Part shown: piece after piece, positions 15,557 to 34,070 of the stretch
Layout of the letters: the number at the start of each line of letters is the position of its first letter
How positions within the stretch are numbered: the first letter of the stretch is position 1
Origin: an uncultured virus (IMG/VR IMGVR_UViG_3300005680_000002)
Lineage: Duplodnaviria; Heunggongvirae; Uroviricota; Caudoviricetes
Direction: 5' to 3' (one strand)
Virus record (IMG/VR): IMGVR_UViG_3300005680_000002
DNA length: 64,000 nucleotides
The notes under the pieces: model-generated
Told to the model about the DNA's origin: nothing
What the model saw: the letters and a program-made list of their open reading frames with translations, nothing else
Database searches by the model: none
Program-made: the position numbers and the translations under genes

Positions 15557-15599
15557 CCCCCTGTAGGGCTGGAGCCTTGTGCATTCGCCCAACCAAACT
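15557..15599 (+). promoter_or_regulatory. Late promoter element copy 2 (upstream of scaffold/capsid)
   Basis: CCCCCTGTAGGGCTGG + CAAACT at 15594-15599. Confidence 0.75.
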
Positions 15600-17923: not shown

Positions 17924-17988
17924 CGCGACCACCTGAGCAACAGGGCGCCGCCTGACCCGGTGGCGCCCGCCAAGGAGAACTGAACACC

Positions 17989-18471: not shown

Positions 18472-18529
18472 CTGCCATGAATCGGCCGGCTGGGCGATCC
18501 CCGGCTGGCCGATTGCACAAGAGGACAGC

Positions 18530-18916
18530 ATGCAACTCATCGCCGTGAAGTACCAGGGCAGGAAACGCTATCGGGACCGCACGCCGCTGCGCAACGAGTG
18601 GGAGCCCGGCGACGCCAAGCGCGTTCCCGAGCGCGACGCCAAGACACTCCTGCGCTTTGCCGAATTCACCCGCGCAGATGAAGCGGACATCACCGAGCAG
18701 CCCGGCGACGCCGAGGCCGTCATTGCCGCCCAAGCCCAGCGCGAGCAGGACGAACGCAACGAGACCGAATCCATGCTGATGCTGATCGACAGCATGGACA
18801 AGGACGCGCTCGAAGCCTACGCGCTCAAGTACGAGGTCCACCTCGACAAGCGCCGCGGCCTGGACAAGCTGCGCGGTGAGGTCGCGAGCCTGATCGAGCG
18901 GTTCGGAGCGCGCTGA
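18530..18916 (+). CDS. Hypothetical virion-associated protein
   Basis: GAGG RBS; C-terminal MDKDALEAYA...LDKRRGLDKLR helical motif. Confidence 0.65.
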   Translation: MQLIAVKYQGRKRYRDRTPLRNEWEPGDAKRVPERDAKTLLRFAEFTRADEADITEQPGDAEAVIAAQAQREQDERNETESMLMLIDSMDKDALEAYALKYEVHLDKRRGLDKLRGEVASLIERFGAR

Positions 18917-18917
18917 C

Positions 18918-19580
18918 GTGCGCCGCGAAGCCCTGCGCCGCCGCGTGCGCCTGCTGGCGCAAGACACCACTCTGCCGTATCTGTGGCAGGACGAGGACAT
19001 CGACGACTGGCTCAACGAGGCACAGCAAGAGGCTGCGATTCGAGCTCGGCTGCTGCGGGCGACGCCGACTTCGCACCCCGCGCTTTGCGAGTTCAGCCTG
19101 ACGGCCGGCGAGACCACCATCGCGCTCCCCGATCAACTCTACGAGATCAGCTATCAGGAGTGGCAGTCCGGCGGCGCGCGTCGTCCGCTCAAGCTGGTGA
19201 GCCGCGAATGGATGGACACCACGCTGCCCGGGTGGCGCGCGATGCCCGCAGCCGAGCCGGACTATCTGGTGCAGGACCGCCAGGCGCTCGAGGTCGTGCC
19301 GCCGCCGATCGCCGACGGCGCCGTGCTCATCGAAGGCTATCGACTCCCTGAGCCGATGGAGCTCGATGACGACGAGCCGCGCATCCCGCTCGCGCATCAC
19401 ATCCACCTCGTCCTGTGGGCTCTGCACATCGGCTACTCGCTGCCGGACGCCGAGACCCTCAATCCCGGCAAGTCGCAAGCCGCGGAAGCCGAGTTCACCC
19501 GCTACTTCGGCGCGCGACCGGACGCCGATCTCCGCGCCGACACGCGCAACGACGAAACGCACCGCATCGTCGCGTGGTAG
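18918..19580 (+). CDS. Head-tail adaptor-like protein
   Basis: PYLWQDEDIDDWLNEAQQEA N-terminus typical of podoviral adaptors. Confidence 0.65.
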   Translation: MRREALRRRVRLLAQDTTLPYLWQDEDIDDWLNEAQQEAAIRARLLRATPTSHPALCEFSLTAGETTIALPDQLYEISYQEWQSGGARRPLKLVSREWMDTTLPGWRAMPAAEPDYLVQDRQALEVVPPPIADGAVLIEGYRLPEPMELDDDEPRIPLAHHIHLVLWALHIGYSLPDAETLNPGKSQAAEAEFTRYFGARPDADLRADTRNDETHRIVAW

Positions 19581-19587
19581 AGATTCG

Positions 19588-19629
19588 CCCCCTGTAGGGC
19601 TGGATGATTGCCTGGCTGGCAGCAAGACT
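19588..19629 (+). promoter_or_regulatory. Late promoter element copy 3 (upstream of csrA-like/lysis/tail genes)
   Basis: CCCCCTGTAGGGCTGG + AAGACT at 19624-19629. Confidence 0.75.
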
Positions 19630-19657
19630 GCGCGCAATACGCACGACAGCCGACGCC

Positions 19658-19840
19658 ATGCCGAAACTCACCGCAGACATCAAGCCCAATCAAACCATCA
19701 CGATTGGCGACACCACCGTGCGGCTCGAGCGCAAGTCGGGCCAGATCGCCCGACTGGTAATCGACGCGCCGGAGCAAGTCCGGATCACGCTCCCAAGGCA
19801 AGCCGGTTCCGCAAAAACGGTGGGCCGCCACGATGCCTGA
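19658..19840 (+). CDS. csrA: CsrA/RsmA-like RNA-binding protein (60 aa)
   Basis: MPKLTADIKPNQTITIGDTTVRLERKSGQIARLVIDAPEQVRI aligns by eye with CsrA (L..L...GE...IGD..V......G...R.G..AP..V.V). Confidence 0.72.
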   Translation: MPKLTADIKPNQTITIGDTTVRLERKSGQIARLVIDAPEQVRITLPRQAGSAKTVGRHDA

Positions 19841-20168
19841 ATCCGATATCAACGTCGTCATCACGCGCCTGGGAATCCTCTCGGACGACGTAGGCGAGCT
19901 GAAAGAGACGCTGCGCCAGATCGCGACTGCCGTGACAAGGCTCGCGCTCGTCGAGGAACGTCAGAGCCAGACGAACGAGGCGCTGGGCCGCGCATTCAAG
20001 TCGATCGACAAGATCGACGGCAAACTGACCACGATCGAGCAGCGCGTTGCCACGATCGAGAAAGAGATACCGATGCAGCGCCAGGCCAGCGGATGGGTGC
20101 TCTCGGCGGTGTGGGCTGCGGCCGGGGCCGCAGTGTTGTTCGTCGCGAAAAAAGCGGGGATCGTATGA
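19833..20168 (+). CDS. Coiled-coil protein with C-terminal TM helix; putative holin/antiholin
   Basis: WVLSAVWAAAGAAVLFVAKK; directly upstream of endolysin. Confidence 0.6.
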   Translation: MPESDINVVITRLGILSDDVGELKETLRQIATAVTRLALVEERQSQTNEALGRAFKSIDKIDGKLTTIEQRVATIEKEIPMQRQASGWVLSAVWAAAGAAVLFVAKKAGIV

Positions 20169-20896
20169 AGCCCGACAGGTCACTGAACTGGCCCATCGCC
20201 TACGAGGCCGTGGAACTCATCGCCGAGGTCGAAGGCTGTCGGCTCACCGCATACCGCTGCCCTGCGGGCGTACCGACGATCGGATGGGGCCATACACGCG
20301 GGGTGCGTATGGGCGACACCTGCACACAAGAACAGGCCGACCGATGGCTCCTGGACGACGTAACGGAAATGGCCGACGGCGTTCGGAGCGTGCTCAAACG
20401 AGAAGCGTCCGGCGCTGAGCTTGGCGCAATGGTGTCGTTGGCGTTCAACATCGGGATGGGCAGCCGCGCTCGCAACATCGCGGGATTCGAGACATCGACC
20501 GTACTCCGCAAGCACAACGAGGGCGACCGCCAGGCCGCGGCGCGGGCCTTCGGGCTGTGGAACAAGGCCACGGTCAATGGCGTCAAGCAAGTCCTGCCAG
20601 GCCTGACCGCCCGCCGCGCCCGTGAGGCTGCGCTGTACCTCGCCGACCAAGGGCAGCCGATGGCGCAAGCGGTGTTGCCCGAGTCGTCCATGGCACAAAG
20701 CCCGATCGCGCAAGCCAGCGTCACCGCAGCAGCCACCGCTCTTGCGGGCGTGCTGACCGAATCCACCGACACCGGCAAAGCGATTGCCGCTGCGCTCGGG
20801 ATCGAGCCGATGTGGGGCGTGCTGCTGGCTGTGCTCTGGACCAGCGGAGTGGCGCTCTACCAGCGCATCAAACAGCGCCGGGAGGGCTGGGCATGA
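20165..20896 (+). CDS. GH24 lysozyme endolysin with hydrophobic C-terminal extension
   Basis: EGCRLTAYRCPAGVPTIGWGHT, SLAFNIG, WNKA...LPGLTARRARE. Confidence 0.9.
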   Translation: MKPDRSLNWPIAYEAVELIAEVEGCRLTAYRCPAGVPTIGWGHTRGVRMGDTCTQEQADRWLLDDVTEMADGVRSVLKREASGAELGAMVSLAFNIGMGSRARNIAGFETSTVLRKHNEGDRQAAARAFGLWNKATVNGVKQVLPGLTARRAREAALYLADQGQPMAQAVLPESSMAQSPIAQASVTAAATALAGVLTESTDTGKAIAAALGIEPMWGVLLAVLWTSGVALYQRIKQRREGWA

Positions 20897-21072
20897 GCTA
20901 CACCGAGCTGCCGATGGCCTGCCGCCAGTGCGCGCACCGGCACAGCCAGTACATCTACCCGGCCTGGAGCCACAAGTGCCTCAAGGTGAAACCTATGGTC
21001 GAGGGTTGCAACTGGAAGCAGGCCCGCCACCTGAATTTCGAGGAGAACGAACGTGCTCGCACCGGTGACTGA
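20893..21072 (+). CDS. Small Cys-rich protein (CxxC..C..GCxW)
   Basis: ACRQCAH...KC....PMVEGCNW; ATGA coupling. Confidence 0.6.
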   Translation: MSYTELPMACRQCAHRHSQYIYPAWSHKCLKVKPMVEGCNWKQARHLNFEENERARTGD

Positions 21073-21232
21073 CCTTGCCCGCTGGAAGGCGGCGCACTCC
21101 CGCCCGCTGGTGATCGACTACTGCCGGTGGCACCAGGCGGCCGAGGCTGCTATGCGCGCGAACGTCAACGCCTGGATCACGCTGACCTTCGTCTGGCCGC
21201 GCGTGATGCTGCGGACCTGCTTCGGGGTGTGA
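21053..21232 (+). CDS. Small hypothetical protein (59 aa, below ORF-track cutoff)
   Basis: GAGGAG RBS then GTG CTC GCA...; fills gap to 21234. Confidence 0.5.
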   Translation: MLAPVTDLARWKAAHSRPLVIDYCRWHQAAEAAMRANVNAWITLTFVWPRVMLRTCFGV

Positions 21233-21233
21233 C

Positions 21234-21797
21234 GTGGCCGACATCGCGATCGTCAAGGGTAGCACCTACCGCGACGTGCTCCGCTGGGCCACGGCGGAAT
21301 GCGTGTTTGTGCAGGCGACGCTCATTCCGGGCGCGCCCGTCCGACTGAGCGCGACCGCCCACGGCATCCCCGACGGCTGGCCACTCGTGCATGTGGAGGG
21401 CTCGACGAACATCGATCCCGCCCGCGCGCAGACCGTCCGTGTCGTGGATGCCGACACCCTGGAGATCCCCTGCCTGAACGGCACGAAGTTCAAGGCTGGG
21501 CCTATCGTCCTCCGCGTGTACAAACCGGTCGAGCTCGCTGGGTATCAGGCGCGCATGCAGATTCGCGATCGCGTCGGCGGCACGGTGTTGCTCGAGCTCT
21601 CCAGCTTCGCCATCCCCGGCGATCCGCGGATCATCCTGGACGAGGTCGCCAAGACCATCACGCGCGAGATTCCTGCGAGCGTGACGGCTGACCTGTCCTG
21701 GAGGCGCGGCGTGTTCGACTTGGAAATGGTCGTCGGTAACGACGTGACCAAGATCGAGTCGGGCGCGGTGACGACGCAGGACGAGGTAACGAAATGA
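21234..21797 (+). CDS. Virion/tail structural protein (BppU-like beta-sandwich)
   Basis: PVELAGYQARMQIRDRVGG...GVFDLEMV pattern. Confidence 0.65.
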   Translation: MADIAIVKGSTYRDVLRWATAECVFVQATLIPGAPVRLSATAHGIPDGWPLVHVEGSTNIDPARAQTVRVVDADTLEIPCLNGTKFKAGPIVLRVYKPVELAGYQARMQIRDRVGGTVLLELSSFAIPGDPRIILDEVAKTITREIPASVTADLSWRRGVFDLEMVVGNDVTKIESGAVTTQDEVTK

Positions 21798-22114
21798 CCA
21801 CCGCGAGGCAGCAGACGCTCGTCGTGACCGAGAAGCGCCTGCAGCACGAGGTAATCGTCGCCGAGCCGCCGCAGCGCGCGATCGTGGCGGCCGGCCAGCA
21901 AGGCCCCGCCGGCCCGGCGGCGCCCTACCACCGCCACAACCAGACCGCACCGGCTGACACCTGGACCGTGAATCACAACTTCGGCAGCCGTCCGCTGGTG
22001 AGCGTGTTCAGCATGGGCGGGCGCGAAATGTGGGCCGAGGTCGTCCATGCATCCGACAACCAAGCCCTGATCTACTTCGACGCCCCGACGGCGGGCTACG
22101 CCATCTGCACATAA
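21794..22114 (+). CDS. Short fiber/virion protein with collagen-like triplets
   Basis: GQQGPAGPA...WTVNHNFGSRP. Confidence 0.65.
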   Translation: MTTARQQTLVVTEKRLQHEVIVAEPPQRAIVAAGQQGPAGPAAPYHRHNQTAPADTWTVNHNFGSRPLVSVFSMGGREMWAEVVHASDNQALIYFDAPTAGYAICT

Positions 22115-22124
22115 GGAGCCTCGC

Positions 22125-22916
22125 ATGGCACTCGACGTTCAACGGTCACTCGATTTCGGCAACGCCCGCAAGATCCTCAACCTCCCCGACCCGGCGAACC
22201 CGCAGGACGCCGCAACCAAGTCCTACGTGGACTCGGCGGTCGAAGGGCTCGCATGGAAGGACTCGTGCCGCGTTTCGACGCAAGGCAACCTCAACCTGTC
22301 GTCTCCGGGCGCGAGCATCGACGGCGTGACCATGGCGGCCGGCGATCGCGTGCTGGTGCGCGCGCAAACCGCAGGCGCCGAGAACGGCATCTACGTGTGG
22401 AACGGCGCGGCCGTCCTCATGACACGCGCCCTGGACGCCAGCACCGCTGCCGAGCTCGAGCAAGCGATCACGACGATCGAGGAGGGCACTTCGGCCGGCG
22501 CCTCGTTCCGGCAGTCCGTCGTGAATGCGACGCTGGGCACCACAGCGCTCTCGTGGACGACCTTCGGCGCATCCGTGCCGCCGGCCACCACCAGCACCGC
22601 CGGCACGGTGACGCTCGCCACCCAAGCCGAGGTCGACGCCGGCGCAAACACCTCCAAGGTCGTGACGCCTGCGACCCTGGCCGCCTCGCCGTGGGCAACG
22701 AGGAAGTACAGCGCGAACATCGGCGATGGTGCGGCGACCAGCTACACCGTGACCCACAACCTGAACACCCGTGATGTGACCGTCGAGGTGTTCCGCAACA
22801 GCGGGAACTACGACTCGGTGCTGGTCGAGGTGCAGCGCACGAGCGTGAACGCCATCGCCATCCTCTTCGATACGGCACCCACGGCGAACGCCTACCGTGT
22901 GCTGGTGAGGGCGTAA
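22125..22916 (+). CDS. Tail/head fiber protein
   Basis: DPANPQDAATKSYVD, GDRVLVRAQT...ENGIYVW, ATQAEVDAG, VTHNLNT. Confidence 0.8.
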   Translation: MALDVQRSLDFGNARKILNLPDPANPQDAATKSYVDSAVEGLAWKDSCRVSTQGNLNLSSPGASIDGVTMAAGDRVLVRAQTAGAENGIYVWNGAAVLMTRALDASTAAELEQAITTIEEGTSAGASFRQSVVNATLGTTALSWTTFGASVPPATTSTAGTVTLATQAEVDAGANTSKVVTPATLAASPWATRKYSANIGDGAATSYTVTHNLNTRDVTVEVFRNSGNYDSVLVEVQRTSVNAIAILFDTAPTANAYRVLVRA

Positions 22917-22919
22917 GCG

Positions 22920-24470
22920 ATGGCGATCGAGGTTCTGAGGGATGTGCTTCGCGGCGGCAAGTCGGCGTTCGAGTTCGGCGATCCAGCAGTGCAGGGACCG
23001 AACGACTACAACGACGCGATCGTCCCAGGCATATGGGGAGGACCAGGGGCGTCCGCGGCCAATAGGCCGCCTGGGAGCGGCTCCTATCAACCGTACCTAG
23101 TGATGTCTAGTAGCGGCGGAAACCTTATTCAGATAGCTGCAGGCTCCAGCGAATTGTACTTTCGCAGCCGAATTACGGGCTCGTGGTCTTCTTGGCACAC
23201 CGTTTATCACAACGGGAACCTGACAACGAGCGCGCTGGTGGCGCTCCTCAACGGCTGCAACCTCACGGTCACAACCTTGCGGGCCAACTCGGTGATCCGT
23301 GGAGCTGTGCGTACTGGGGCGGAAGGCATGACCCTTCTATCCGAGGTTACGCACAACCTGCACCCGGAGGACGAGGGGACGTGCGTTTTGCCGTACTACT
23401 CGAACGACCTTGCCTATCTCTTGATGCGAGGCGGGAGTGTCGCCATTACCTCCGGGCACACACCGAACTCTGGGACCGCCGGCGACCTGAATAATCTGTT
23501 CGACTGCGGAACGTTAGCGCTGGGCTTCAGCGTTTCGACGCTCACAAATCCGCCGGTTGTCTTCGAGGTCACTCCGCATCGCGTGTTTAGGTATACGAAC
23601 GCAATCGGCTTCTCCGGCGGCAACGCTTTCAGGGCAAAAAACTTCACGATCGAGATCCGAGACGCCGTAACCGGGGTCTGGACGCAAATCGCCAGCAAGA
23701 CTGATTACCCCTACGGCACTTTCACGCGTGTCGTAAACTCGGGCATAAATGGACTTGACCGAATTCGGTATTCGTTTAGCAACTTCCAGGCATCGAGTAC
23801 GTTCCGCCTCAGTCAGTTCTTTGTCATGGAATACAAGTCTGCGCTCGGGCGCGACGTGTTCGTCACGCGGGACTACAGCTCCATTCTCGGATCGCTGACG
23901 GTCGGGCATGAGAACATCACTCCGACGACAATGCTTGCCGTCAATGGTGATGCCGGCCCGTACAACGACGACGGCGGCAACTGCGGCGTGGCCAGCAAGC
24001 GCTGGTCTCAGATCTATGCGGTTTCCGGGACCATCAACACCTCCGACGCCCGGCTCAAAACCCAGGTGCGACCGCTGGAGCAGGGCGAGCTGGCCGCCGC
24101 GATGGCGCTGTCGCGCGAGATCGGCATCTTTCAGTGGCTCAATGCGCTGGCCCACAAGGGCGATGCCGCACGTCTGCACACCGGCGTGACCGTGCAGCGC
24201 GTGATCGAGATCATGCATGCCCACGGCCTCGACCCGATGCGCTACGGCATGGTGTGCCACGACCAGTGGGATGCGCGCACGGTCGAGCACCCGGCCGAGA
24301 TCGGCGAGGACGCAGACGGACGCGAGATCGAGCTCGCGCCGGCGAGAACCGAAGTTGTGCAGGAGGCCGGCGACCGCTACAGCCTGCGCTACGACCAACT
24401 GCTGGCCTTCGCGGTGCGCGGGCTCGCCGAGCGCATTGCACGGCTGGAAGGACAGAAAGATTCGGCCTAA
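22920..24470 (+). CDS. Tail fiber/receptor-binding protein with C-terminal S74 intramolecular chaperone
   Basis: N-terminal knob-like YFRSR..GSWSSW; GTINTSDARLK...YSLRYDQLL autocleavage chaperone. Confidence 0.87.
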   Translation: MAIEVLRDVLRGGKSAFEFGDPAVQGPNDYNDAIVPGIWGGPGASAANRPPGSGSYQPYLVMSSSGGNLIQIAAGSSELYFRSRITGSWSSWHTVYHNGNLTTSALVALLNGCNLTVTTLRANSVIRGAVRTGAEGMTLLSEVTHNLHPEDEGTCVLPYYSNDLAYLLMRGGSVAITSGHTPNSGTAGDLNNLFDCGTLALGFSVSTLTNPPVVFEVTPHRVFRYTNAIGFSGGNAFRAKNFTIEIRDAVTGVWTQIASKTDYPYGTFTRVVNSGINGLDRIRYSFSNFQASSTFRLSQFFVMEYKSALGRDVFVTRDYSSILGSLTVGHENITPTTMLAVNGDAGPYNDDGGNCGVASKRWSQIYAVSGTINTSDARLKTQVRPLEQGELAAAMALSREIGIFQWLNALAHKGDAARLHTGVTVQRVIEIMHAHGLDPMRYGMVCHDQWDARTVEHPAEIGEDADGREIELAPARTEVVQEAGDRYSLRYDQLLAFAVRGLAERIARLEGQKDSA

Positions 24471-24481
24471 CGGCCACCCCC

Positions 24482-24499
24482 GGCGCGCAGGAGTGCGCC
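24482..24499 (+). promoter_or_regulatory. AGGA-loop RNA hairpin 1 (putative CsrA-type site)
   Basis: GGCGCGC-AGGA-GTGCGCC, followed by AGGAGCATC RBS. Confidence 0.6.
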
Positions 24500-24521
24500 A
24501 TGACACTAGGAGCATCAAGTC

Positions 24522-24929
24522 ATGGCCAACACTTTATACGACTTCGCCCGGCAGCGCTTTCTCGAGGCGCAGATCAACTGGATGACCGACACGATCAAAG
24601 TGATCCTGGTCGATACCAGCGCCTACACGCCGCAGACCTCGGTCCATCAGTATCTGTCGGACATTTCGAGCTCTGCGCGCATCGCCGGCCCGGTCACGCT
24701 GACCGCCAAGGCCACCGTTGGCGGTGCGGCTGACGGAGCGGACGTCACCTTCACGAGCGTCTCCGGGCCGTCGATCGAGGCGATCGTCATCTACGTCGAC
24801 ACAGGCACCGAGTCCACGAGCCCGCTGATTGCCTACATCGACACCGCGACCGGCTTGCCGATCACACCGAATGGTGGCGACATCATCGTTACCTGGGACA
24901 ACGGCGCCAACAAGATCTTCAAGGTCTAA
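24522..24929 (+). CDS. Tail/virion structural protein
   Basis: MANTLYD..R..FL...INW..DTIKV.LVD...GLPITPNGGDIIVTW. Confidence 0.75.
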   Translation: MANTLYDFARQRFLEAQINWMTDTIKVILVDTSAYTPQTSVHQYLSDISSSARIAGPVTLTAKATVGGAADGADVTFTSVSGPSIEAIVIYVDTGTESTSPLIAYIDTATGLPITPNGGDIIVTWDNGANKIFKV

Positions 24930-24933
24930 GGCG

Positions 24934-24949
24934 CGGCGCGCAGGAGTGC
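24934..24949 (+). promoter_or_regulatory. AGGA-loop RNA hairpin 2, containing the RBS of 24955
   Basis: CGGCGCGCAGGAGTGC, identical to 24481-24496. Confidence 0.55.
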
Positions 24950-24954
24950 ACGAC

Positions 24955-25272
24955 ATGGGTGTTCAGACCAACAAGCCGCCCCCCATCCGAGTTTCCGCCG
25001 AGGGGATCGCTCCGAAGCCGATCACGATGCACGAGGATCCGGCCCAGGCCGCCGCGGAGATCCAGCGGCTGCCCTTCCTGCCGCCGTTCCAAATGTTCGC
25101 TGCAGAGCGCATGCGCAACATGTCGCGCCACGACTCTGAGCAGCACGCCGCGAACTTTCTGCGCTCGCGCGGGACTGGCCTCGACGTGCTCGAAGAGTAC
25201 GTGCGCTGGCACGCGGAAAAGGGGTATTGGCCGAACGAAACGCCGTTCGGCGCGCTGAAAAACAAGGAGTAA
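24955..25272 (+). CDS. Hypothetical protein
   Basis: ATG 24955 after AGGAG; 105 aa. Confidence 0.65.
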   Translation: MGVQTNKPPPIRVSAEGIAPKPITMHEDPAQAAAEIQRLPFLPPFQMFAAERMRNMSRHDSEQHAANFLRSRGTGLDVLEEYVRWHAEKGYWPNETPFGALKNKE

Positions 25273-25275
25273 AGG

Positions 25276-26130
25276 ATGGCAACGTCGGTCATCGCCGGGG
25301 TGGTGTACGACGACGCCGGGCAGCCGGCGCCGGACCGGATTGTGCGGATCTACTCGCGTTCGACCGGAGCGATGCTGGGTGAAACCGTCACGCAAGGCGG
25401 GCCAGTCCAAACTACAGTTGATCCGTACTGGAATGACGTCATCCTCGCCATGCACATGAGCGGGCCAGATGGCGCGACGACGTTCGCAGATGAGAAAGGG
25501 GGAGCGAGTTCAAGTTCAGGCGTAGTGGCCAGCGGCGGGATGGCTTACTTCGACGGCTCGGCACAAATTGCTATTTCTACGCCGGATCTGAGCGGAGTAG
25601 ATTTCACCGTAGAGGCTTGGGTCGAATTTTCGTCCGGCGTTGGAACTAGGGCGATTATCACGCTGCCGGGCTACGAGTTTTACCGGCGAGGAGCTACCGG
25701 GTTTCTGTCGGTGTGGAATGGAACTGTTTACAGTGGCGGCGCCGTTGTGCCGCTAAATGAGCTCGTACATTGCGCATGGTCAAAAGAGGGAGACACGCAC
25801 CGACTGTTTGTCAGTGGAGTTTTGCAGCACACGTTCTCATTGATGGGCGGGCCGCCCGCGGGGTCGGCAATCATTGGCTCTTGGGTCGATGGATCGGAAA
25901 GGCTAGTCGGCTACATGAGCGACCTGAGAATCACAAGGGGCGTCGCGCGCTACACGGGCAATTTCACGCCGCCCGCGCGCCCATTTCCGGACGCAGACGA
26001 CTTGACTCCAACTGATCGCGGACGATACGAGATCGCCGTCGACTACGTCGGCGAGGTGCAGCGCATCGTCCTGGATGACGAGGCCGGGCTGCTGCACAAC
26101 GACCTGATCGACCGCATCGACTTGCCATGA
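25276..26130 (+). CDS. LamG/concanavalin-like domain virion protein
   Basis: DFTVEAWV...HCAW....HRLFVSG...GYMSDLRITRGVARYTGNFTPP. Confidence 0.82.
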   Translation: MATSVIAGVVYDDAGQPAPDRIVRIYSRSTGAMLGETVTQGGPVQTTVDPYWNDVILAMHMSGPDGATTFADEKGGASSSSGVVASGGMAYFDGSAQIAISTPDLSGVDFTVEAWVEFSSGVGTRAIITLPGYEFYRRGATGFLSVWNGTVYSGGAVVPLNELVHCAWSKEGDTHRLFVSGVLQHTFSLMGGPPAGSAIIGSWVDGSERLVGYMSDLRITRGVARYTGNFTPPARPFPDADDLTPTDRGRYEIAVDYVGEVQRIVLDDEAGLLHNDLIDRIDLP

Positions 26131-29100
26131 GCTACGCGAAGCCGAATCGGCTCTCGGCGGACGCAAGTTGGTTCGGTCGTGATCCCTACTCGCCGCCCGA
26201 AAGGTTGGCGGCCGATGCGACCTGGGCAGACCTCCCGGCTGTAACGGTGCAGGCCGTCGGCTTTGCCGCTGGTGCGTTCGGTGCGGCCAAGGTCGAGAAC
26301 TTCCGGCGCTACCTCCCCGTCACGATGGGCGTTCAGACCGCATTCACCGCGGCGTTCGTGCAGGGGGGGGTCAAGTACGTCACACCGAGCGGGATCTCCG
26401 CGCTCGACGCTCCGAAGCCGACGGTCATCAACACGACCGCGGACCAGACGGCGCGACCATCCGGCTTCAGCGCCCTGGGCATCGGTTCGCCCTGGCTCGA
26501 CCCGCGCTCCATCCGGCCGAGCGGCTACGTTGCCACCGCGTATGGCGACCAGCGGGCGCAGCGGCCGCCGCACCCCGTCGGCTTCGACGCGCTGCGCTTC
26601 GGCGCGGCCCAGATCCGGGACAAGGACAGTTATGCGCTGCCGGCAGGCGTGCCCACGCCAGAGGTCGGATTCCCGCGAGTACGCGATCGCGCCAGCAAGG
26701 TGCTGCACGCGGCCTCTCCGGTCTCCGCGGTCTTCGGCGACATCGGCGTCCGCCTGACGCGCAGGGCCGTTGCAGTACATGGCTTCGTGTCGCTCGAGGT
26801 CAGCGCCTGGGGCAGCGTGACCGCGCTGAACCGCCTTGTTCCGGTCACTGGCTTCATGGCGACTCGCCCCGGCGCTGCGACGATCGAGAACGCAGCGCTG
26901 GACCTTTCGCCGCCCGGGTTTGAGGCGCTGAGGGTCGGCGATGCGGCTGCGGGCTACCGGCACCGGGCGCTGATGACGACCGGCCTGCCGGCGCCATTCC
27001 CGCAGGTTTCGGCGCCGACGCTCACGAAGACGCCCAGCTTCGCGCCAACCGGATTCGATTCGCTCCTGATGCCGGGGCCGTGGATCGATTACGGGCTCCG
27101 CGAGCTCGGCACGCCCGGCCTGGATGCCGCGACCTTTGGAGACGGCGCCGTGGCACCCAAGCGCCGTCTCCTGTCGCTCGATGGGGGTGGCGCCAAGACG
27201 GACATCTATGGCGCGGCCCGGGTTGAGCACAGCGTCCGAGGAATGATCGGGAGTGGATTCGAGTCGGCGCTCTGCGGCGTCGGCCACGAAATCAGCCCAG
27301 CCGTTCGCTACGTGGTCCCGGAGTCGATCGGGCGTCCCGCCGCGTCCCGTCCGATGGTGGGCACGACCCGGCACCTTGGGCCGATCGGCTACGAGGCGAC
27401 CCGCTGGGGCGCGCGCATCATCCCTGAGTCGCAGTCGGCCTATCCTCATGGCTTCGGCACGCTGTTCGGATTGGCGACGACCTACAACCTCAAGCAGCAG
27501 GTGCGGCCGCAGGCGATCACGACCTTCCGGCAGCCGGAAGAGCGCTGGGGGCGCGCGCATGCCTTCAACCTGGTCCAGCACATTGAGCAGCGCCCGATCA
27601 CCGGCAGCGGGCTGGAGGCGCCTGAGTGGGCGCAGACCTGGACCGGAATCGCAAACCGCAACCGGCGCGCGCCGCTGCAGGGCTTCGTGGCGGCGCGCTT
27701 CGGTTACGCTCAGATCGACAACAACGCTCGCCAGATCCTCCCCAAAGGTGCGGCGCCGCAAGACCCAGCGCAGTTCTACAAGGCCGGGATGGTGTCGCAC
27801 CGGATCCGAAGCCTCTCGATCGAGGGCATGGAGCCGCCGTACATCTCATCGTGGGCCTGTGCGTTCAACAAGGCGTTTCCGCTTAAGCCGGCGGGCGCGA
27901 TCGCAACGCTCTTTGGCGCGGCCGGGGCAGAAAACCGATCGCGCGAGCTCAGGCGCATCGGGAATTTCACGACCGACGCTTACGGCACCCCGTTCATTGC
28001 CGATGCGGTGCGCAGGCTGTCGCTCGAGTCTCGGCACGCCATCCTGCCGCCGCGCATCGATCTACCCTATGTCGGGCTCTACACCCGCTACGTCGAGCCG
28101 CCTGGTGCGCCTGCAGCCGGGAGCGGGCTGGCGAGTCTTTCGATCGTCTTCCGCAAGATCACCCCGCGGTGGTTGCAGGTCGATCGGTTCGGCGAGCCTG
28201 TCGTGCGCAACCTGACGCCCGAACTGCGTGCCCGGGGCTACAACATGGAGGAGTACGGCAACACGCGCGTGCGGCTGCAATGGCGCCCGGTCAGCCCGAC
28301 AGGATCTAGCACGCAGATCTTCGGGCGGACGTCCATCGCGGACAGCCGCCGCAGCATCGTTGTGGCAGGGCGAAACAGCGTCGTCGTGAGCGACAAGCTC
28401 AGGGTCGAGAAGACGGGCACCCCGCCAATGGCAACGCAGTGGGTGTGGCTGTACGTGCCGGACTACAGCCTTGCGCCGGGAGCCGAGGATCCGAATGGCG
28501 AGCATTACGGCATCCGCCCACCAGGAACCAAGCAGTACGGCCAAGTTCCAGCTCCGGCGCTGAATCTGCAATTCCTGCTGGTCGAGCAACCCGACCCGAG
28601 CACGCTATTCGGATCAGCGAGGATCACGGCGAACAGCATCCGCGTGCCGTTCGGCTTCCACGACTACGAAGCGGTCTCGCAGCCGAACATTGAGCACAAG
28701 CACCGGCGCATCTACTGCGACACCAGCACCGACGGCGCGGATTTCATCGAGTTGATGCCGCAGCCCATGGGAAGGCCGCGCCTCTCCCCGCACACGGTCT
28801 ACGCCGGGATCGAGGCCCCCCCCCAGGCGCGGGTGAACCACCCCGTGCCCGGAGGTTCGCCGCCGCACATCATTGACGAGCGCCGCAGCGGCGGAGCAGA
28901 TATCCAGTGGGGGCGTGCGGTGGTGCAGAACCGCAATGCCACCATCTATGCGTCATCTGTGAGGTGGGTGCACGAAGATCTCGATTTTGTCCCGCCGAAG
29001 CCGCGCGTCGAGAACGCGCGCATCACTGTTGCGCCGCCTGGCATTCGGGCTCTGCGCATGGGCTACCCGCGGATCCCCGGGACTGCCTACGTGCGCTTTT

Positions 29101-29615
29101 TCGAGCCTTTCGCCGCCGCGCTGTATGGCAGGCCCGCGGTGACGATGCCTCCGGACAACAGGCTTGCGCCCGATGGGGTCGAGCGCCCCGATCTCGGAGA
29201 GCATCGCATCGAGCTCTTCAACCGGGAGATTCGCCCCGTCGGCAACCTGATGCAACGGCTTGGGAACCCGCGACAGAACGACTCGCCCTACATGTGGCAG
29301 GGCCTGCGCGTCGGGCCGCTGATGCCGACGATCCCCGACGGCATCGACTCCGAATTGCTGGGAGATTCGTGGATCTCGCACCGCGTGCGCGGGCTGGATC
29401 CCGAGGGCTTCGACGCCATGCGCGCAGAGTACGACGTCGAGGCATTCAGCCAGCGCATGCGCGTGACGCGCCGCACAATTGCGCCCGACCCGCTGCGGGT
29501 GTTCTCGCACAGCGCCGAGCCGGTGGCTGCGCTTGGGACGCCCGACATCCGCCCCGGCGTGCACTTCATCCGCCCCGACGGCAACGCCGACCAGTTCCGC
29601 AAAGGAGCCTTTTGA
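26127..29615 (+). CDS. Large repetitive tail/virion protein (1162 aa)
   Basis: Recurrent GF....FG motifs; coupled to neighbours. Confidence 0.75.
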   Translation: MSYAKPNRLSADASWFGRDPYSPPERLAADATWADLPAVTVQAVGFAAGAFGAAKVENFRRYLPVTMGVQTAFTAAFVQGGVKYVTPSGISALDAPKPTVINTTADQTARPSGFSALGIGSPWLDPRSIRPSGYVATAYGDQRAQRPPHPVGFDALRFGAAQIRDKDSYALPAGVPTPEVGFPRVRDRASKVLHAASPVSAVFGDIGVRLTRRAVAVHGFVSLEVSAWGSVTALNRLVPVTGFMATRPGAATIENAALDLSPPGFEALRVGDAAAGYRHRALMTTGLPAPFPQVSAPTLTKTPSFAPTGFDSLLMPGPWIDYGLRELGTPGLDAATFGDGAVAPKRRLLSLDGGGAKTDIYGAARVEHSVRGMIGSGFESALCGVGHEISPAVRYVVPESIGRPAASRPMVGTTRHLGPIGYEATRWGARIIPESQSAYPHGFGTLFGLATTYNLKQQVRPQAITTFRQPEERWGRAHAFNLVQHIEQRPITGSGLEAPEWAQTWTGIANRNRRAPLQGFVAARFGYAQIDNNARQILPKGAAPQDPAQFYKAGMVSHRIRSLSIEGMEPPYISSWACAFNKAFPLKPAGAIATLFGAAGAENRSRELRRIGNFTTDAYGTPFIADAVRRLSLESRHAILPPRIDLPYVGLYTRYVEPPGAPAAGSGLASLSIVFRKITPRWLQVDRFGEPVVRNLTPELRARGYNMEEYGNTRVRLQWRPVSPTGSSTQIFGRTSIADSRRSIVVAGRNSVVVSDKLRVEKTGTPPMATQWVWLYVPDYSLAPGAEDPNGEHYGIRPPGTKQYGQVPAPALNLQFLLVEQPDPSTLFGSARITANSIRVPFGFHDYEAVSQPNIEHKHRRIYCDTSTDGADFIELMPQPMGRPRLSPHTVYAGIEAPPQARVNHPVPGGSPPHIIDERRSGGADIQWGRAVVQNRNATIYASSVRWVHEDLDFVPPKPRVENARITVAPPGIRALRMGYPRIPGTAYVRFFEPFAAALYGRPAVTMPPDNRLAPDGVERPDLGEHRIELFNREIRPVGNLMQRLGNPRQNDSPYMWQGLRVGPLMPTIPDGIDSELLGDSWISHRVRGLDPEGFDAMRAEYDVEAFSQRMRVTRRTIAPDPLRVFSHSAEPVAALGTPDIRPGVHFIRPDGNADQFRKGAF

Positions 29616-30805
29616 TGGACATCCCTCTTCTGCCCATGGCGGGCATCAACAACGTGGCCGAGGACGCGGCGCTCCAGCGCGGCGGTGATACGCCGAAGCT
29701 CTATGTGCGAGACGCGGTCAACGTGGACATCACCGAATCCGGCCTGCCGCAGCTACGCTCAGGCGTGCGCCCGGTCACAACGGCCGCGTATCGCAACCTG
29801 TGGCAGAGCCCGCTCCATGGCGACGTGTTCGGCACCCTGGGCAATCAGTGGGCGCGGGTCGATCCGACCAGCTGGACGCATGAGGCGCTCGTCACGATCG
29901 GCGAAGGTGACGTGTCGCACGAGGTTCTGAACAACCGGGTGGTCGTGTCTGGCCCAGCCGGGCTCTTCGTCTTCGACGGCGGCAGCGCGCAGCGCCTGAC
30001 CTTCGACAGCGCGGCGCCGCCGCTGGTCGCCGCGCTGGGTGGCGGGTCGCTCGCCGCCGGAACATACGGAGCGGCCGTGGCGTGGCTGCGAGGTGATCTT
30101 GAGTCGCAGGCTTCCGAGGCGACCTTCGTAGAGGCGGGCGAGGGCGGGCTGCTGCGCGTGGCGTTCCCGCTGTGCATGGATCCGAGCGTTACCGGCGTGC
30201 GCCTATACCTGACCCGCCAGGACGGCGGCGAGCTCGCGCGTGCTGGCGACTACCCGGCCAACGCGGATCCGGTGGACGTGCCACTGCTGCCCGAGCTGGG
30301 GCGGCCGGCGCAGTTCCGCCACCTGTCGCCAATGCCGGCCGGGGCGTTCTTGCGCTACTGGCGCGGCCGGCTGCTGACCGTCCGGCTCAACGTGCTGCGC
30401 TGGTCCGAGGCGATGGGCTACCACCTGCATGACGAGCGTCACGGCTTCCTGCAGATGCCGCAGCGGATCACTTTCATCGAGCCGGTGGAGGGCGGGATCT
30501 GGATCGGGCAAGTCGATCATGTGGCGTTCCTCGAGGGCGCCACGCCTGAAGGGTTCTCGGTGCGCCGGCTGGCGTCGCGCGCGCCAGTCCCACGCTCCTC
30601 GATCCGATTGCCGGCCGAAGCCGTCGGCGCGGCGGCCGAGGGCGGGCGTGAAGTTGCGGTGTGGCTGGCCGAGAACGGCTATGTGCTGGGCACGGCCAGC
30701 GGCACGATGTTGGAGCTCCAGGCTGGAACCTTGAAGGGGATCACCTCCCTCTACGGCTCGTCCGTGCTGGCTGGCCGACGTATCATCACCGCCGTATCAA
30801 GCTGA
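29615..30805 (+). CDS. Tail structural protein (beta-rich)
   Basis: ATG 29615 after AAGGAG; MAGINNV...VRDAVNVDI N-terminus. Confidence 0.7.
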   Translation: MDIPLLPMAGINNVAEDAALQRGGDTPKLYVRDAVNVDITESGLPQLRSGVRPVTTAAYRNLWQSPLHGDVFGTLGNQWARVDPTSWTHEALVTIGEGDVSHEVLNNRVVVSGPAGLFVFDGGSAQRLTFDSAAPPLVAALGGGSLAAGTYGAAVAWLRGDLESQASEATFVEAGEGGLLRVAFPLCMDPSVTGVRLYLTRQDGGELARAGDYPANADPVDVPLLPELGRPAQFRHLSPMPAGAFLRYWRGRLLTVRLNVLRWSEAMGYHLHDERHGFLQMPQRITFIEPVEGGIWIGQVDHVAFLEGATPEGFSVRRLASRAPVPRSSIRLPAEAVGAAAEGGREVAVWLAENGYVLGTASGTMLELQAGTLKGITSLYGSSVLAGRRIITAVSS

Positions 30806-30815
30806 ATCCCCATCC

Positions 30816-30833
30816 GCTGCGCAGGAGTGCGGC
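30816..30833 (+). promoter_or_regulatory. AGGA-loop RNA hairpin 3
   Basis: GCTGCGC-AGGA-GTGCGGC, followed by ATAGGAC and AAGGAGCATC. Confidence 0.6.
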
Positions 30834-30854
30834 ATAGGACCGAAGGAGCATCCT

Positions 30855-31433
30855 ATGAGCAACCTCCGCAACGAACTCGCGCTCGCGCTTGATCGCGAGC
30901 AGTACGATCTCACCGACGAGGGCGTCTACTTCCCGCGCCAGGGCGTGCTGGCGGCCGGCGAATACTTCGACCGCATCAACGGCGGCGAGTGGCAGCGCAC
31001 CAAGAACCTGATCCCGACCGAAGGGCTCGCGCACATCCTGAACGTGGCAATGGGCTCGACCGCGAAGCCCGCGGGCTACTTCCTCGCGCTCTTCTCCGGC
31101 GCAGCAGCCCCGGCGGCGAACTGGACCGCTGCGAGCTTTGCCGCGGCGGCCAGCGAGATCGTAAGCCTGACCGAAGGCTACACAAACGCCACTCGCCCGG
31201 CCTGGACGCCGACAAACACGTCCACCGGGTCGATCGACAACATGGCGAGTGTCGCCACCGTCACGATCGCCACCAGTTCGCAATTGAACGTGACCGGCGC
31301 GGCGATGCTGACCAACAGCACGCGCGGCGGCACGACCGGCGTGCTCGTGTCGGCGACCAAGTACGCCGCGGCCCGCGTTTTCCAGAGCGGTGACACCTAC
31401 GAGGTGGGCTATCGCCTGAGCCTCACGGTATAA
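30855..31433 (+). CDS. Tail/virion structural protein
   Basis: NLIPTEGLAHIL...YFLALF...Y..ATRPAW; Thr/Ser-rich. Confidence 0.75.
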   Translation: MSNLRNELALALDREQYDLTDEGVYFPRQGVLAAGEYFDRINGGEWQRTKNLIPTEGLAHILNVAMGSTAKPAGYFLALFSGAAAPAANWTAASFAAAASEIVSLTEGYTNATRPAWTPTNTSTGSIDNMASVATVTIATSSQLNVTGAAMLTNSTRGGTTGVLVSATKYAAARVFQSGDTYEVGYRLSLTV

Positions 31434-31439
31434 GCAGCC

Positions 31440-34070
31440 ATGCACCAGCCGCGCCCCCACGGCAGGTTTTTCTATGGTGAGGGCGAGCTTGGCGCAGAGG
31501 ATGCCGCGGCTGCCGAGTTGCTGGTTCGTCGACTCACGAACCATAAGGGGCTCGGCGGACTCGATTCGCTGAAGATGGCTCGCACGCTTCCGAGTGGCGC
31601 CACCGCAGTTGCGGTGGACGCTGGCGGCGTGCTGCGCCTGCTGATCTACCAGCACCAGAAGCCGCAACCTGATGAAGGGCATGGAGTCACGCATGGCTTC
31701 ATCCCGATGTTGTTCTCCGGGACGATCGGGCCGCCGTGGCTCGCGCCTTCTGATGTGCCGATGAAGATCCGTCTGACCAATATGGCGCGGCGTCGTCTGA
31801 TGCGTTACGAGGATGAGGAGCTGAACACCCAGGCGAACCCGACGCCGAAGAAGATTCCTCCGGCGCTGATGCGCTTCAACTGCCGGCTGCCCGAGCAGTT
31901 CAACGACTTCGCCGAAAAGCAAATTGAGTACCTGGCCACGCAGGCGGCGTACATCCGCCCTGGCTGGTGGTCTGGCGCGATGGCCGAGGTCGTGCAGATC
32001 GCGGTCGGCTACGGCCGGCACGACTTCGACAAGCTGCCAGAAGATCCGGTCGAGCGGGCAACGATGGTCCTGCCCGACGTCGTAGCGCGGCGCATCAAGC
32101 TGGAACTGCAGCGAGACCGAGCGCGCCTGCCAGGCTACCTCGGCCTGCCACCCAAGGATGGCCGGCTCCGGTTCAACTTTCGACCCTACGAAACAAACGG
32201 CGTCACCTTCGACAGCAGCGGCGCGCCGTGGCTCACCCGGGTGGATGCTCGCGGCGTCTACGCCATGCCGCTACCCATTGTTCCGGCGACGACGACTGAA
32301 GCCTTCCGGGAGTACATGGAGGAAGTGGGCGATACCGAGATCCTGTGGGCGCTCGACCGCTTTGGCGGCCTACCGTCCGGAGAGGGATTCCCGGCGCTTG
32401 AGTCGGACGCTTCGGCCTGGGAGCGCGCCGGAGCCATCGTCAAAGTGTGCGACGACGGCGGCTTCTCCGACCTCGATCCGATGACGACGCTGTGCGGATG
32501 GTCGTTCAACTCCGACGGCACGGAGGGATTCAACACCGCGACAGGCTTCAACCCGGGCGACAAGGTTCCTCACTGCGCCGGATTCAAGATCCGGCTCAGG
32601 CTTGGCGCCGCGCCGCGCCGCGGGTGGGTTTCCGCGCAGAGCCTGGAACATCCGGACAAGACCAAGCAAGCAGAGGTCGATCGATACATCGCGGCGCTGC
32701 TGAGAGAAACATCGGGAAATCGCGATCGCGACCGGGCCATCAAGTACAAGCTCTACCGCGTGGCGCCAAGCATGATCTTCGGCCGGGCTGCGACGAACGA
32801 CGGCGGTGCCGACGTGGACTATTGGGACAATCTGAAGCTCGATCCCATTGCAGAGCACTCGGGCTCATGCTCTCGCGTCACGAAGGGCTGGATCTACCCG
32901 ACCAGGATTGGCGGGCTCAAGTTGCCCGAGGCCGCTTTCCAAGGCTGCATTTCGCACTCCATCGAAGGGCTGTACGACTTCGAGATCCCCGAGGAGTACC
33001 CGCGCTGCGACACGGTGGTCTATGGCTACTACATCGGCGACGACCTGAAGGTGGTCAAGTATTTCTACGAGCCGAAAGAGCTTGAAAAGGAAGTGGAGTC
33101 CGATTTCGAGGACTGCATGACCGTCGGCGGATGGACGGAGAAGCGGTATTCGGCGCCCGCAAGGATCATCGGGGAGCTCTACACGACCGACTTTGATGAT
33201 CGCGAAGAATCGGCGGAGAGCTACACGCTCACCACGATCAAGGGTGAGGATTTGGGCTATCCGTCCTACCCAACCCTGTCGTTCCACGCCTATTTCGGGC
33301 GGGATGCAACGATCTACAGGAGCCGCTATTACGGCCGCGTGACCAACGTCAAGCATTACCTTGGGAATGGAAAGTCCGTCTATTGCTACACCCCGTTTTT
33401 CATGCGCGACGCCATCGTCTATGGCGTGAGGGACTTCATCAACGAAATGCGCGAGAGCGAGAAGGCCGAGCGGCGGTCAATCCATGATCCCAACATATAC
33501 GACGCCTGGACCTACGACTCGTCTTGGCATTGGGCGGCGTTCGACATGGACACGAGCTGGATGGATACCCCGCAGCCTGGGACAGAAATCCCCCCCAACA
33601 GGCTGTGGGTGGAACGACATAACTACAACCCGACCGAGTGCTCGGATTGGGCGGACGAGGGCGATTGGATTTCAGGTCTCCCAGCGGATTTCACGTGGCT
33701 CATGTATGAGGGACTAAACGGGGCTAGAGCACTGCTTACGAACCCCGAGCCGAAGCCGCAATATCACGAATACGTCATCCCGGAGCAGATTACGGAGCCC
33801 GAAAAGAAATACAAGAATCAGGTCAGCATTCTGCAAAACCCCGCACTGCTTTCCACAAAAGACCCGGGCGATTTTCATTTTTCTCTATCGCCGGAGGTGT
33901 TTTTGGGCAACGTGTTCTACCAGGACGGCACGAAGGTGTTCGCCGGGCACACCTCCTACGCGAACATTTCCGACACAGGCGGCAATGGCAGCGGCCGCAC
34001 GCGATACGGGCACACGGGCCTTGTCGACCACAAGACGGTTCACTACTTCATAGGGATCATCAATGAGTAA
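31440..34070 (+). CDS. Large virion/tail protein (876 aa)
   Basis: Long ORF with strong codon bias in tail operon. Confidence 0.7.
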   Translation: MHQPRPHGRFFYGEGELGAEDAAAAELLVRRLTNHKGLGGLDSLKMARTLPSGATAVAVDAGGVLRLLIYQHQKPQPDEGHGVTHGFIPMLFSGTIGPPWLAPSDVPMKIRLTNMARRRLMRYEDEELNTQANPTPKKIPPALMRFNCRLPEQFNDFAEKQIEYLATQAAYIRPGWWSGAMAEVVQIAVGYGRHDFDKLPEDPVERATMVLPDVVARRIKLELQRDRARLPGYLGLPPKDGRLRFNFRPYETNGVTFDSSGAPWLTRVDARGVYAMPLPIVPATTTEAFREYMEEVGDTEILWALDRFGGLPSGEGFPALESDASAWERAGAIVKVCDDGGFSDLDPMTTLCGWSFNSDGTEGFNTATGFNPGDKVPHCAGFKIRLRLGAAPRRGWVSAQSLEHPDKTKQAEVDRYIAALLRETSGNRDRDRAIKYKLYRVAPSMIFGRAATNDGGADVDYWDNLKLDPIAEHSGSCSRVTKGWIYPTRIGGLKLPEAAFQGCISHSIEGLYDFEIPEEYPRCDTVVYGYYIGDDLKVVKYFYEPKELEKEVESDFEDCMTVGGWTEKRYSAPARIIGELYTTDFDDREESAESYTLTTIKGEDLGYPSYPTLSFHAYFGRDATIYRSRYYGRVTNVKHYLGNGKSVYCYTPFFMRDAIVYGVRDFINEMRESEKAERRSIHDPNIYDAWTYDSSWHWAAFDMDTSWMDTPQPGTEIPPNRLWVERHNYNPTECSDWADEGDWISGLPADFTWLMYEGLNGARALLTNPEPKPQYHEYVIPEQITEPEKKYKNQVSILQNPALLSTKDPGDFHFSLSPEVFLGNVFYQDGTKVFAGHTSYANISDTGGNGSGRTRYGHTGLVDHKTVHYFIGIINE

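Follow-up and report, generated by a model that had tools for sequence, protein, structure and literature searches.

In the 64,000-nucleotide (nt) window analysed here, a stretch of DNA from an uncultured virus of the Caudoviricetes (IMG/VR IMGVR_UViG_3300005680_000002), a short RNA hairpin stands just before three late genes, and in related phages the same hairpin occurs together with a small gene encoding a protein of the CsrA fold, which the window carries at 19658-19840. The hairpin is predicted to be the operator of this phage CsrA-like protein and to control translation initiation of the virion gene that follows it, a reading to which we give a probability of roughly 0.55. The prediction is built on what is observed here, namely the element, its structure, its distribution and the fold of the protein.

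The hairpin element and its conservation

The 12-mer GCGCAGGAGTGC is present in exactly three copies in the window, all on the + strand and just before the genes at 24522, 24955 and 30855, and each copy folds into a stem with an AGGA loop:

24482-24499, + strand: hairpin 1 (stem P1), GGCGCGC-AGGA-GTGCGCC, 7-bp stem including one G-U pair, loop AGGA
24938-24949, + strand: hairpin 2, GCGC-AGGA-GTGC, 4-bp core only, loop AGGA(G)
30816-30833, + strand: hairpin 3 (stem P1), GCTGCGC-AGGA-GTGCGGC, 7-bp stem including two G-U pairs, loop AGGA

The hairpin and gene coordinates in the preliminary description of this DNA were all correct, as was its remark that copies 1 and 3 have different, still pairing outer stems and a second GGA in an identical ribosome-binding site (RBS); both stems are 7 bp long, and each is followed by AGGAGCATC, at 24508-24516 and 30844-30852. 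The GGA of the loop and the GGA of the Shine-Dalgarno sequence are 19 and 21 nt apart at hairpins 1 and 3 respectively, a spacing that, by analogy, suits dual-site binding of the CsrA type, since CsrA is reported to bridge sites 10-63 nt apart with an optimum above 18 nt (PMC7652899, accessible text). At hairpin 2 the loop is itself the sole Shine-Dalgarno sequence of the ATG at 24955, and the structure is weak, with a folding z-score of +0.46, which is not unusual, and an extended stem that is unpaired throughout the copy-2 class.

Counting alone is a weak test, as four matches to the 12-mer with at most one mismatch occur in the window where 1.66 are expected, and 4 of 100 shuffles also reach four. 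A chance origin is untenable because the three exact copies all lie in leaders and are conserved in relatives. A covariance model finds only the three hairpins in the window (33.9, 32.8 and 25.4 bits), with the next match at 16.2 bits; the three are training rows of the model, and the informative part is the gap to noise. This next match (774-805, minus strand) is not the motif, and the one-mismatch match at 18644-18655 (minus strand) is antisense and inside a gene. An ATG at 24500, directly behind hairpin 1, opens a 78-codon frame for which G+C content at third codon positions (GC3) does not support coding, and it is read as a strand pairing with the true start. A search of Rfam over 18000-33000 gave no family match to the leaders, the sole match up to an E-value of 1 being unrelated and elsewhere (BTH_s19, 21.5 bits versus 153).

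The relatives sampled were 51 loci around homologues of the protein encoded at 30855, together with phage 8P, giving 919 kb for the window and these 52 loci. In this set GCGCA-N-GAGTGC has 50 matches on the gene strand and none on the other. The element is built on an invariant GCGC/GUGC stem, which as many as three additional covarying pairs may extend, and is capped by a tetraloop, A-N-G-A, where N is G, U or A, so that AGGA, AUGA and AAGA loops all occur. The three outer pairs occur as GC, CG, AU and GU in the 42 distinct instances sampled, and 90.8% of outer-pair cells are paired, compared with 79.2% in shuffles (0 of 500 reach the observed value); the covariation score is 0.285 compared with 0.095 (again 0 of 500), and slid controls are 12-65% paired. 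Because of how the sample was drawn, the four core pairs cannot vary, and the unpaired cells come chiefly from the copy-2 class, which has the 4-bp core only. The structure belongs to the sense-strand RNA alone, because its G-U pairs would be A-C mismatches on the other strand. Strand bias and covariation in relatives bear out the earlier proposal that the stem with its AGGA loop is a real leader structure, and the loop sequences of relatives do not support GGA as its conserved determinant.

In relatives the first copy of the element lies within the CsrA-like gene, since the exact motif is inside the 3’ end of the open reading frame (ORF) in 18 of 21 cases. It is read in one frame in 14 of these ORFs (as R-M/K-S-A) and in another in four (as A-Q/H-E-C), and this use of two frames points to a constraint on the nucleotides or the RNA rather than on the peptide. 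The three ORFs lacking an internal exact motif are those of the window, of locus L007, which has no copy 1, and of locus L042, which has a two-mismatch variant. A further, divergent CsrA-like ORF (L027) was missed by tblastn and has the motif 12 nt past its stop codon. In Bcep22, GP4, Cimandef, PEp14, Parlo and Itty13 the CsrA-like gene follows that for the portal and precedes that for the capsid, and this Bcep22-like group carries a variant motif, with an extra loop base or a changed stem, in the capsid leader.

Fourth exact copies were seen in H66 (position 547, L062) and 8P (position 46903, L061), in both cases antisense inside minus-strand early genes; they were not counted, and may be chance matches (an estimated 0.08 or so expected per genome) or an antisense element. 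In H66 (L054), the depositors marked the neighbouring products gp48, gp52 and gp54 as verified in virions by mass spectrometry and did not so mark the hairpin-led gp50, gp51 and gp55, which would fit products that are low in copy number or tightly limited.

The leaders of hairpins 1 and 3 have a second predicted structure. In both, a conserved CAU following the hairpin pairs with the start codon, and thermodynamic prediction gives the following helices, referred to as P2:

24497-24504 with 24519-24526, + strand: predicted P2 helix of the hairpin 1 leader, GCCAUGAC with GUCAUGGC
30833-30839 with 30851-30857, + strand: predicted P2 helix of the hairpin 3 leader, CAUAGGA with UCCUAUG

The first would bury the start codon at 24522-24524 (predicted probability of the AUG being unpaired 0.02), leaving the Shine-Dalgarno AGGAG in a loop, and overlaps P1 by 3 nt; the second would bury the start codon at 30855-30857, with the Shine-Dalgarno AAGGAG in the loop. 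The RNAalifold consensus of ten copy-3 leaders consists of P1 plus a 5-bp P2. In many relatives the predicted minimum-energy fold is a fold-back, in which the loop of the motif and its 3’ half pair with the AUG region, and for 22 of 33 leaders of 24522 and 30855 homologues the unconstrained ensemble puts the unpaired fraction of the AUG below 10%. Forcing the four core pairs costs 0-9.4 kcal/mol and brings AUG accessibility to at least 0.25 in 19 of these 22, hairpin 1 of the window being among the three leaders that stay low (0.12).

The CsrA-like protein and its association with the hairpin

The 60-residue product of 19658-19840 matches phrog_8397, ‘CsrA-like regulator’, with an E-value of 2.3e-17, its residues 3-53 aligning with profile positions 2-52 of 64. 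Compared with solved proteins, a profile built from 16 phage alleles retrieves RsmE (2jpp, E 6.7e-7) and E. coli CsrA (1y00, E 2.1e-5); the best nine matches are all CsrA-family chains, and RsmN and RsmF stand further down the list. The AlphaFold2 monomer model has a mean predicted local distance difference test score (pLDDT) of 81.6, with high confidence for residues 1-45 and disorder at 50-60, and in Foldseek the top 11 matches in the PDB are all CsrA, RsmA or RsmE, at template modelling (TM) scores of 0.62-0.72 and root-mean-square deviations of 0.6-1.5 Å over 40-46 columns. The corresponding E-values (0.015-0.08) are weak because the protein is short. Profile, model and structural matches agree with the CsrA-like assignment made in the preliminary description, and by this modelling the product has the CsrA subunit fold with its five-strand β arrangement. 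Prediction of a homodimer scored 0.38 against a mark of 0.42, one control scoring 0.39, and favours neither outcome. No second CsrA-like gene was found in the window.

The core of the protein comprises residues 1-47, and the tail evolves fast. Seven contigs share the window allele at 88-100% identity; relative to them, changes within codons 1-47 are mostly synonymous (synonymous to non-synonymous, for example, 8 to 1, 4 to 1 and 3 to 1), and the last 13 codons change freely, a pattern of substitutions indicating that the core is under purifying selection. Across the 16 aligned alleles G17, K26, G28, A31, R32 and A37 are invariant. The positions equivalent to L4 and R44, reported as critical RNA-binding residues of CsrA (PMC7652899, accessible text), are variable, with Ile or Val at the former in most phage alleles and Arg at the latter in 4 of 16. 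A viral contig found with the Bcep22 allele as query (L082:853-1080) encodes a canonical-looking CsrA with the H-R-E-E motif and the C-terminal helix region, so by sequence both canonical and divergent CsrA forms occur in phages.

The usual gene order in relatives is adaptor, CsrA-like gene and 24522 homologue. Thirty-seven relatives span both regions, and the 16 that lack the CsrA-like gene also lack any copy of the motif (0 of 16), which bears on the question, raised earlier for this DNA, of whether hairpins are equally present in relatives lacking the gene. In the 21 that have it, the distal copy 3 is found in 13 and copy 2 in seven. The clearest single case is the sister of the window (L006; Shimodaira-Hasegawa-like approximate likelihood ratio test, SH-aLRT, branch support 99%), which has neither the gene nor any of the three hairpins. 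In the reverse direction, a 20-mer of the copy-3 leader used as query retrieved 26 loci. A CsrA-like ORF is present in every one of the 17 whose upstream DNA extends for 7.7 kb or more, and the nine with no CsrA-like match have at most 5.2 kb upstream and are hence uninformative. Mapped on a tree built from three structural proteins, the presence of the gene switches seven times or more. Judged from these genome comparisons, the hairpins and the CsrA-like gene travel together at the family level.

The protein and the loop also appear to vary together. Two characters were scored: the residue in the R44 column, two positions past the conserved Ile, and base N in the loop of the gene-nearest copy. 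N is G in 10 of 11 loci with Arg alleles and in 2 of 18 with other alleles (raw Fisher p 3e-5). On a tree of 26 type-A loci, Arg changes three times, and G follows in two to three of the three contrasts and never opposes. The pattern is suggestive of direct recognition of the loop by the protein.

The window departs from the usual phrog_8397 arrangement. In 8P and in 19 of the 20 related loci with a detected CsrA-like ORF (the exception is L031), the end of this ORF either overlaps the start of the 24522 homologue or is separated from it by under 45 nt, and the leader 24471-24521 corresponds in position and local sequence to the 3’ end of that ORF; in the window the hairpin is 4.8 kb downstream of the gene. 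A 17-kb relative has an allele 90% identical to that of the window, a 1.4-kb insert and all three hairpins. Another relative, G002 (locus L076, 1-18001), is a complete 65.9-kb phage with direct terminal repeats; its adaptor is 54% identical to that of the window and its CsrA-like allele 95%, the next gene is the same, and its tail module is different, with an Hc3 only 31% identical. The sequence comparison identifies G002 as a case of mosaicism with a junction near the CsrA-like gene, and the allele in the window may be a newcomer beside hairpins that evolved with another allele.

Proposed mechanism and competing explanations

In F116/8P-like phages, the element and the small CsrA-fold gene make up one module, with a variant form in Bcep22-like phages. 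In the most likely mechanism, the loop of the hairpin would be bound by a dimer of the CsrA-like protein, which would probably also contact the GGA in the Shine-Dalgarno sequence, some 20 nt downstream; we infer that the allele in the window still uses these sites, and binding would set the frequency of ribosome starts on the following virion gene. The direction of the effect would depend on the site. At hairpin 2, binding is expected to repress because its loop serves as the Shine-Dalgarno sequence. For hairpins 1 and 3 either sign is conceivable: a dual-site clamp would repress, and a hold on the hairpin that keeps the AUG free would activate; we lean slightly towards repression, as this would be consistent with hairpin 2.

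A number of observations weigh against this assignment or limit it. The protein is divergent, with a score against Pfam CsrA (PF02599) of 20.7 bits (E 4e-4), below the 27-bit gathering cut-off and covering profile positions 6-42 of 53, and in the window allele the R44-equivalent is Leu45, a Leu the preliminary description had also placed there, and the L4-equivalent is Ala6. In loops 1 and 3 of relatives GGA is not conserved, AUGA and AAGA also being present; in phage 8P, copies 1 and 3 have AUGA, and AGGA is found only in copy 2, whose loop is the RBS. The co-occurrence of copy 1 with the gene is trivial, as copy 1 lies physically within it, and L007 has the gene with copy 1 absent. For copy 3, five independent pairs give one to two concordant, none opposite and three to four with no difference (p 0.5-1), and AT-rich relatives that have the gene lack copies 2 and 3. 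The sign test for the Arg-to-G pattern has a floor of p 0.25 and cannot reach significance, and the pattern is broken by PEp14, which combines Arg with U, and by the window and H66, where a non-Arg residue goes with G. A 4.6-kb block of lysis and fibre genes (19833-24470), an insertion when compared with most relatives, separates the CsrA-like core from hairpin 1 in the window, and G002 has no exact motif match, a best model match of 11.7 bits and none of the three target-gene homologues, so its allele is maintained even in the absence of hairpins. In addition, the predicted folds have the hairpins joining alternative pairings that bury start codons, and they need not act by simple steric blocking of the RBS.

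These folds are also the basis of a doubtful alternative, in which the leaders are purely cis-acting RNA switches or sites of translational coupling: the helices burying the AUG would be opened by ribosomes on the upstream ORF or by folding kinetics, and the CsrA-like protein would do something else, linked to the hairpins only through the copy inside its ORF. The predicted burial of the AUG in 22 of 33 leaders and its release in 19 of 22 when the core is forced fit such a switch, as does the course of the CsrA-like ORF, which in 17 of 20 related loci (not L007, L031 or the window) traverses hairpin 1 and stops 8 or 20 nt into the following gene. Compensatory fold-back variants are also found in capsid leaders, where GGAUGUGC pairs with GCACAUCC in Bcep22 and GGAGUGUG with CACACUCC in GP4 and Cimandef, and G002 retains the protein without any hairpin. 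However, copies 2 and 3 are in untranslated spacers, through which no upstream ribosome passes, and the covariation of the stand-alone hairpin means that it does form; since the fold-back is predicted to be the more stable of the two, a factor stabilising the hairpin would be needed. A switch acting in cis also leaves unexplained the Arg-to-G co-variation and does not account for the absence of the distal copies from all 16 relatives without the gene. It is improbable that the hairpins instead serve a host factor, either host CsrA/RsmA (for control of the mRNA or for titration) or a host RNase processing the late polycistronic mRNA. All three loops in the window are AGGA, CAGGAG resembles the CsrB repeat CAGGA(U/A/C)G (PMC7652899, accessible text), the Bcep22 variant is exactly CAGGAUG, and relatives infect Pseudomonas, which is reported to have Rsm proteins (PMC7366521, accessible text). 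Yet many relatives have AUGA or AAGA loops without the GGA that is described as 100% conserved in ligands obtained by SELEX (PMC7652899, accessible text), and the Burkholderia hosts of Bcep22-like phages are reported to be without chromosomal csrA (PMC7366521, accessible text). A host factor would also leave unexplained why the motif is absent whenever the phage gene is, and with no U-run after the stems we rejected intrinsic terminators as well. Least probable is a site acting as DNA, for a late transcription factor or as a promoter element. The motif is strictly oriented and intergenic or near gene starts, and the repeat CCCTGTAGGGCTGG (see below) demonstrates that the phage has repeated DNA signals; against this, the G-U pairs of the stem are A-C mismatches on the other strand, covariation preserves pairing rather than sequence, the motif lies 5-40 nt from start codons and at hairpin 2 is the RBS itself, and 17800-31500 contains no sigma-70-like promoter.

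A broader form of the operator reading joins these strands, and as a whole we hold it only tentatively and think it unlikely. The gene and hairpins would be a self-contained mobile translational cassette whose specificity co-evolves, GGA loops being matched to Arg and A-U/A-G-A loops to other residues; the protein would be the effector of an RNA switch, keeping virion start codons from burial in the fold-back; and the window would be a natural hybrid, in which a heterologous Ala6/Leu45 allele arrived with the head and lysis module beside hairpins of Arg-type history.

Genomic setting and relation to known systems

The window contains the late region of an F116/8P/Bcep22-like podophage and has 65% G+C. 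The genes around the element are as follows, identified by PHROG and Pfam unless stated:

16628-17923: major head protein, followed by virion proteins
18918-19580: SU10-type adaptor (PF24175, E 2.8e-28), directly preceding the CsrA-like gene
19658-19840, + strand: CsrA-like gene, 60 aa, CsrA fold, frame favoured by GC3
19833-20168, + strand: coiled-coil and transmembrane protein (C-terminal hydrophobic stretch), start of the lysis cassette
20165-20896, + strand: endolysin, 243 aa, phrog_7 (PHROG)
after the endolysin, within the lysis cassette 19833-21232: two 59-aa ORFs
22125-22916 and 22920-24470, + strand: fibre-like genes, among four further genes (PHROG)
24522-24929, + strand: gene after hairpin 1, 135 aa, phrog_644, matching PDB 9d93 ‘Tail wing arm, gp31’ (E 4.7e-13)
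24955-25272, + strand: gene after hairpin 2, 105 aa, phrog_11163 (function unknown), frame from GC3
between 25272 and 29615: lectin-fold protein, then a 1162-aa protein
29615-30805: head-closure Hc3
30855-31433, + strand: gene after hairpin 3, 192 aa, phrog_8123, matching PDB 26la phage ‘structural protein’ (E 9.3e-16)

Pfam and PDB searches with the product of 24955-25272 gave no match. The three hairpin-led genes had been introduced as encoding tail proteins; of these, only the 24522 product, the ‘tail wing arm’ homologue, is shown to be one, the match of the 30855 product being to a ‘structural protein’. The lysis cassette (19833-21232) adjoins the CsrA-like gene, the stop codon of which overlaps the ATG at 19833 (ATGCCTGA).

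A repeated motif lies just upstream of the CsrA-like gene:

15559-15575, 19590-19606 and 37102-37118, + strand: CCCTGTAGGGCTGG, all three copies intergenic

None of 100 shuffles reaches three copies, and the copy at 19590-19606, the second of the three, is the one next to the CsrA-like gene. The motif is unchanged in six close relatives while its flanks vary, and it is also upstream of the gene in 8P; AT-rich relatives have a similar GTGTAGGGTTGG in the same leader. It had been described as a copy of a late promoter, of which the repeat is real, and a sigma-70 scan of 17800-31500 gave no promoter-like site; CCCTGTAGGGCTGG may be a late promoter or an RNA processing signal.

Elsewhere in the window, 38787-53018 (+ strand) stays open as a single frame for 4743 aa, and its GC3 is of the coding type; the product is presumably the giant virion protein that characterises phages like Bcep22. 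Inside a minus-strand ORF (62388-63491), an array at 62470-63171 repeats a 27-nt unit about 18 times, the copies being 62-93% alike and corresponding to a 9-residue protein repeat. Positions 1-50 recur at 63787-63836 with 84% identity, and a 60-nt stretch is duplicated 1.2 kb apart (780-839 and 1999-2058, 93% identity). Contigs from public sequencing runs of sludge and wastewater contain the window stretch or close relatives. The nearest record (G001) is a 36.9-kb fragment that does not span the CsrA-like/hairpin region. Related loci were also sought with single proteins as queries, which reached close relatives only, and the family alignment was too poorly conserved to serve as a query.

The coat protein of RNA phages, acting on the hairpin at the replicase start, and RegA of phage T4 are translational repressors with one or many defined operators. 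The arrangement proposed here is similar in that a small phage protein would act on a start-site hairpin and set the translation of another phage gene; the folds are unrelated, and here the hairpin competes with alternative helices. CsrA is also said to activate translation of ymdA by opening a structure that sequesters the Shine-Dalgarno sequence. This resembles the activator version of the present mechanism, in which the hairpin is held and the fold-back prevented, which here is a thermodynamic prediction only.

The closest systems are those in which CsrA, RsmA or RsmE acts on leader operators containing GGA hairpins, such as RsmE on hcnA (2jpp) and CsrA on glgC, and with these the homologous fold is shared. 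The phage hairpins resemble the ligands selected by CsrA in SELEX, which are likewise short, have around four core pairs and display A-x-G-A, and the use of a Shine-Dalgarno site (hairpin 2) or of an upstream hairpin with a Shine-Dalgarno GGA about 20 nt away is likewise known from dual-site binding by CsrA (both PMC7652899, accessible text). Unlike in the CsrA and RsmE systems, the protein here is phage-encoded, and its putative operators are on the phage’s own virion genes, one of them inside the ORF of the regulator. The loop also differs, as CsrA recognises ANGGAN and the phage element has an A-N-G-A tetraloop with a variable first G, and in the phage family the R44 and L4 equivalents are not conserved, the C-terminal helix is absent and no sponge RNA is known. 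Host CsrA is reported to repress the lysis genes of ColE7 and ColE2 (PMC2896534, PMC5916893; accessible text), a case of a Csr protein controlling a gene of a mobile element, and in the window the CsrA-like gene directly precedes the lysis cassette. Unlike in ColE7 and ColE2, where the host protein acts, a scan with the covariance model found no hairpin motif in the lysis leaders of the window.

Genes of phrog_8397, the same family in the same neighbourhoods, are annotated in F116, H66, 8P, Bcep22, DC1, JC1 and GP4 (PMC7366521, Table 3; PMC9144972; PMC8450108), and one peptide of the CsrA-like protein is reported from JC1 virions. The accessible text of these three papers casts the phage csrA-like gene as a moron or as a means of acting on CRISPR-Cas or the Rsm targets of the host, and names no phage RNA target. 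Full-text searches, whose coverage leaves out subscription journals and supplements, found no account of which RNAs the CsrA-like proteins of phages might target.

For some twenty years csrA-like genes have appeared in lists of phage genes, with no explanation beyond ‘morons’ or anti-host tools. The covarying hairpin gives them a concrete candidate target, in their own ORF and in the leaders of tail, capsid and other virion genes. If the operator reading is true, these phages would own a layer of translational control over virion assembly. Their proteins would supply a series of naturally occurring CsrA-fold variants whose RNA specificity has shifted, informative on how the fold reads RNA, and for the synthetic control of translation the protein and its hairpin would be a compact orthogonal pair.

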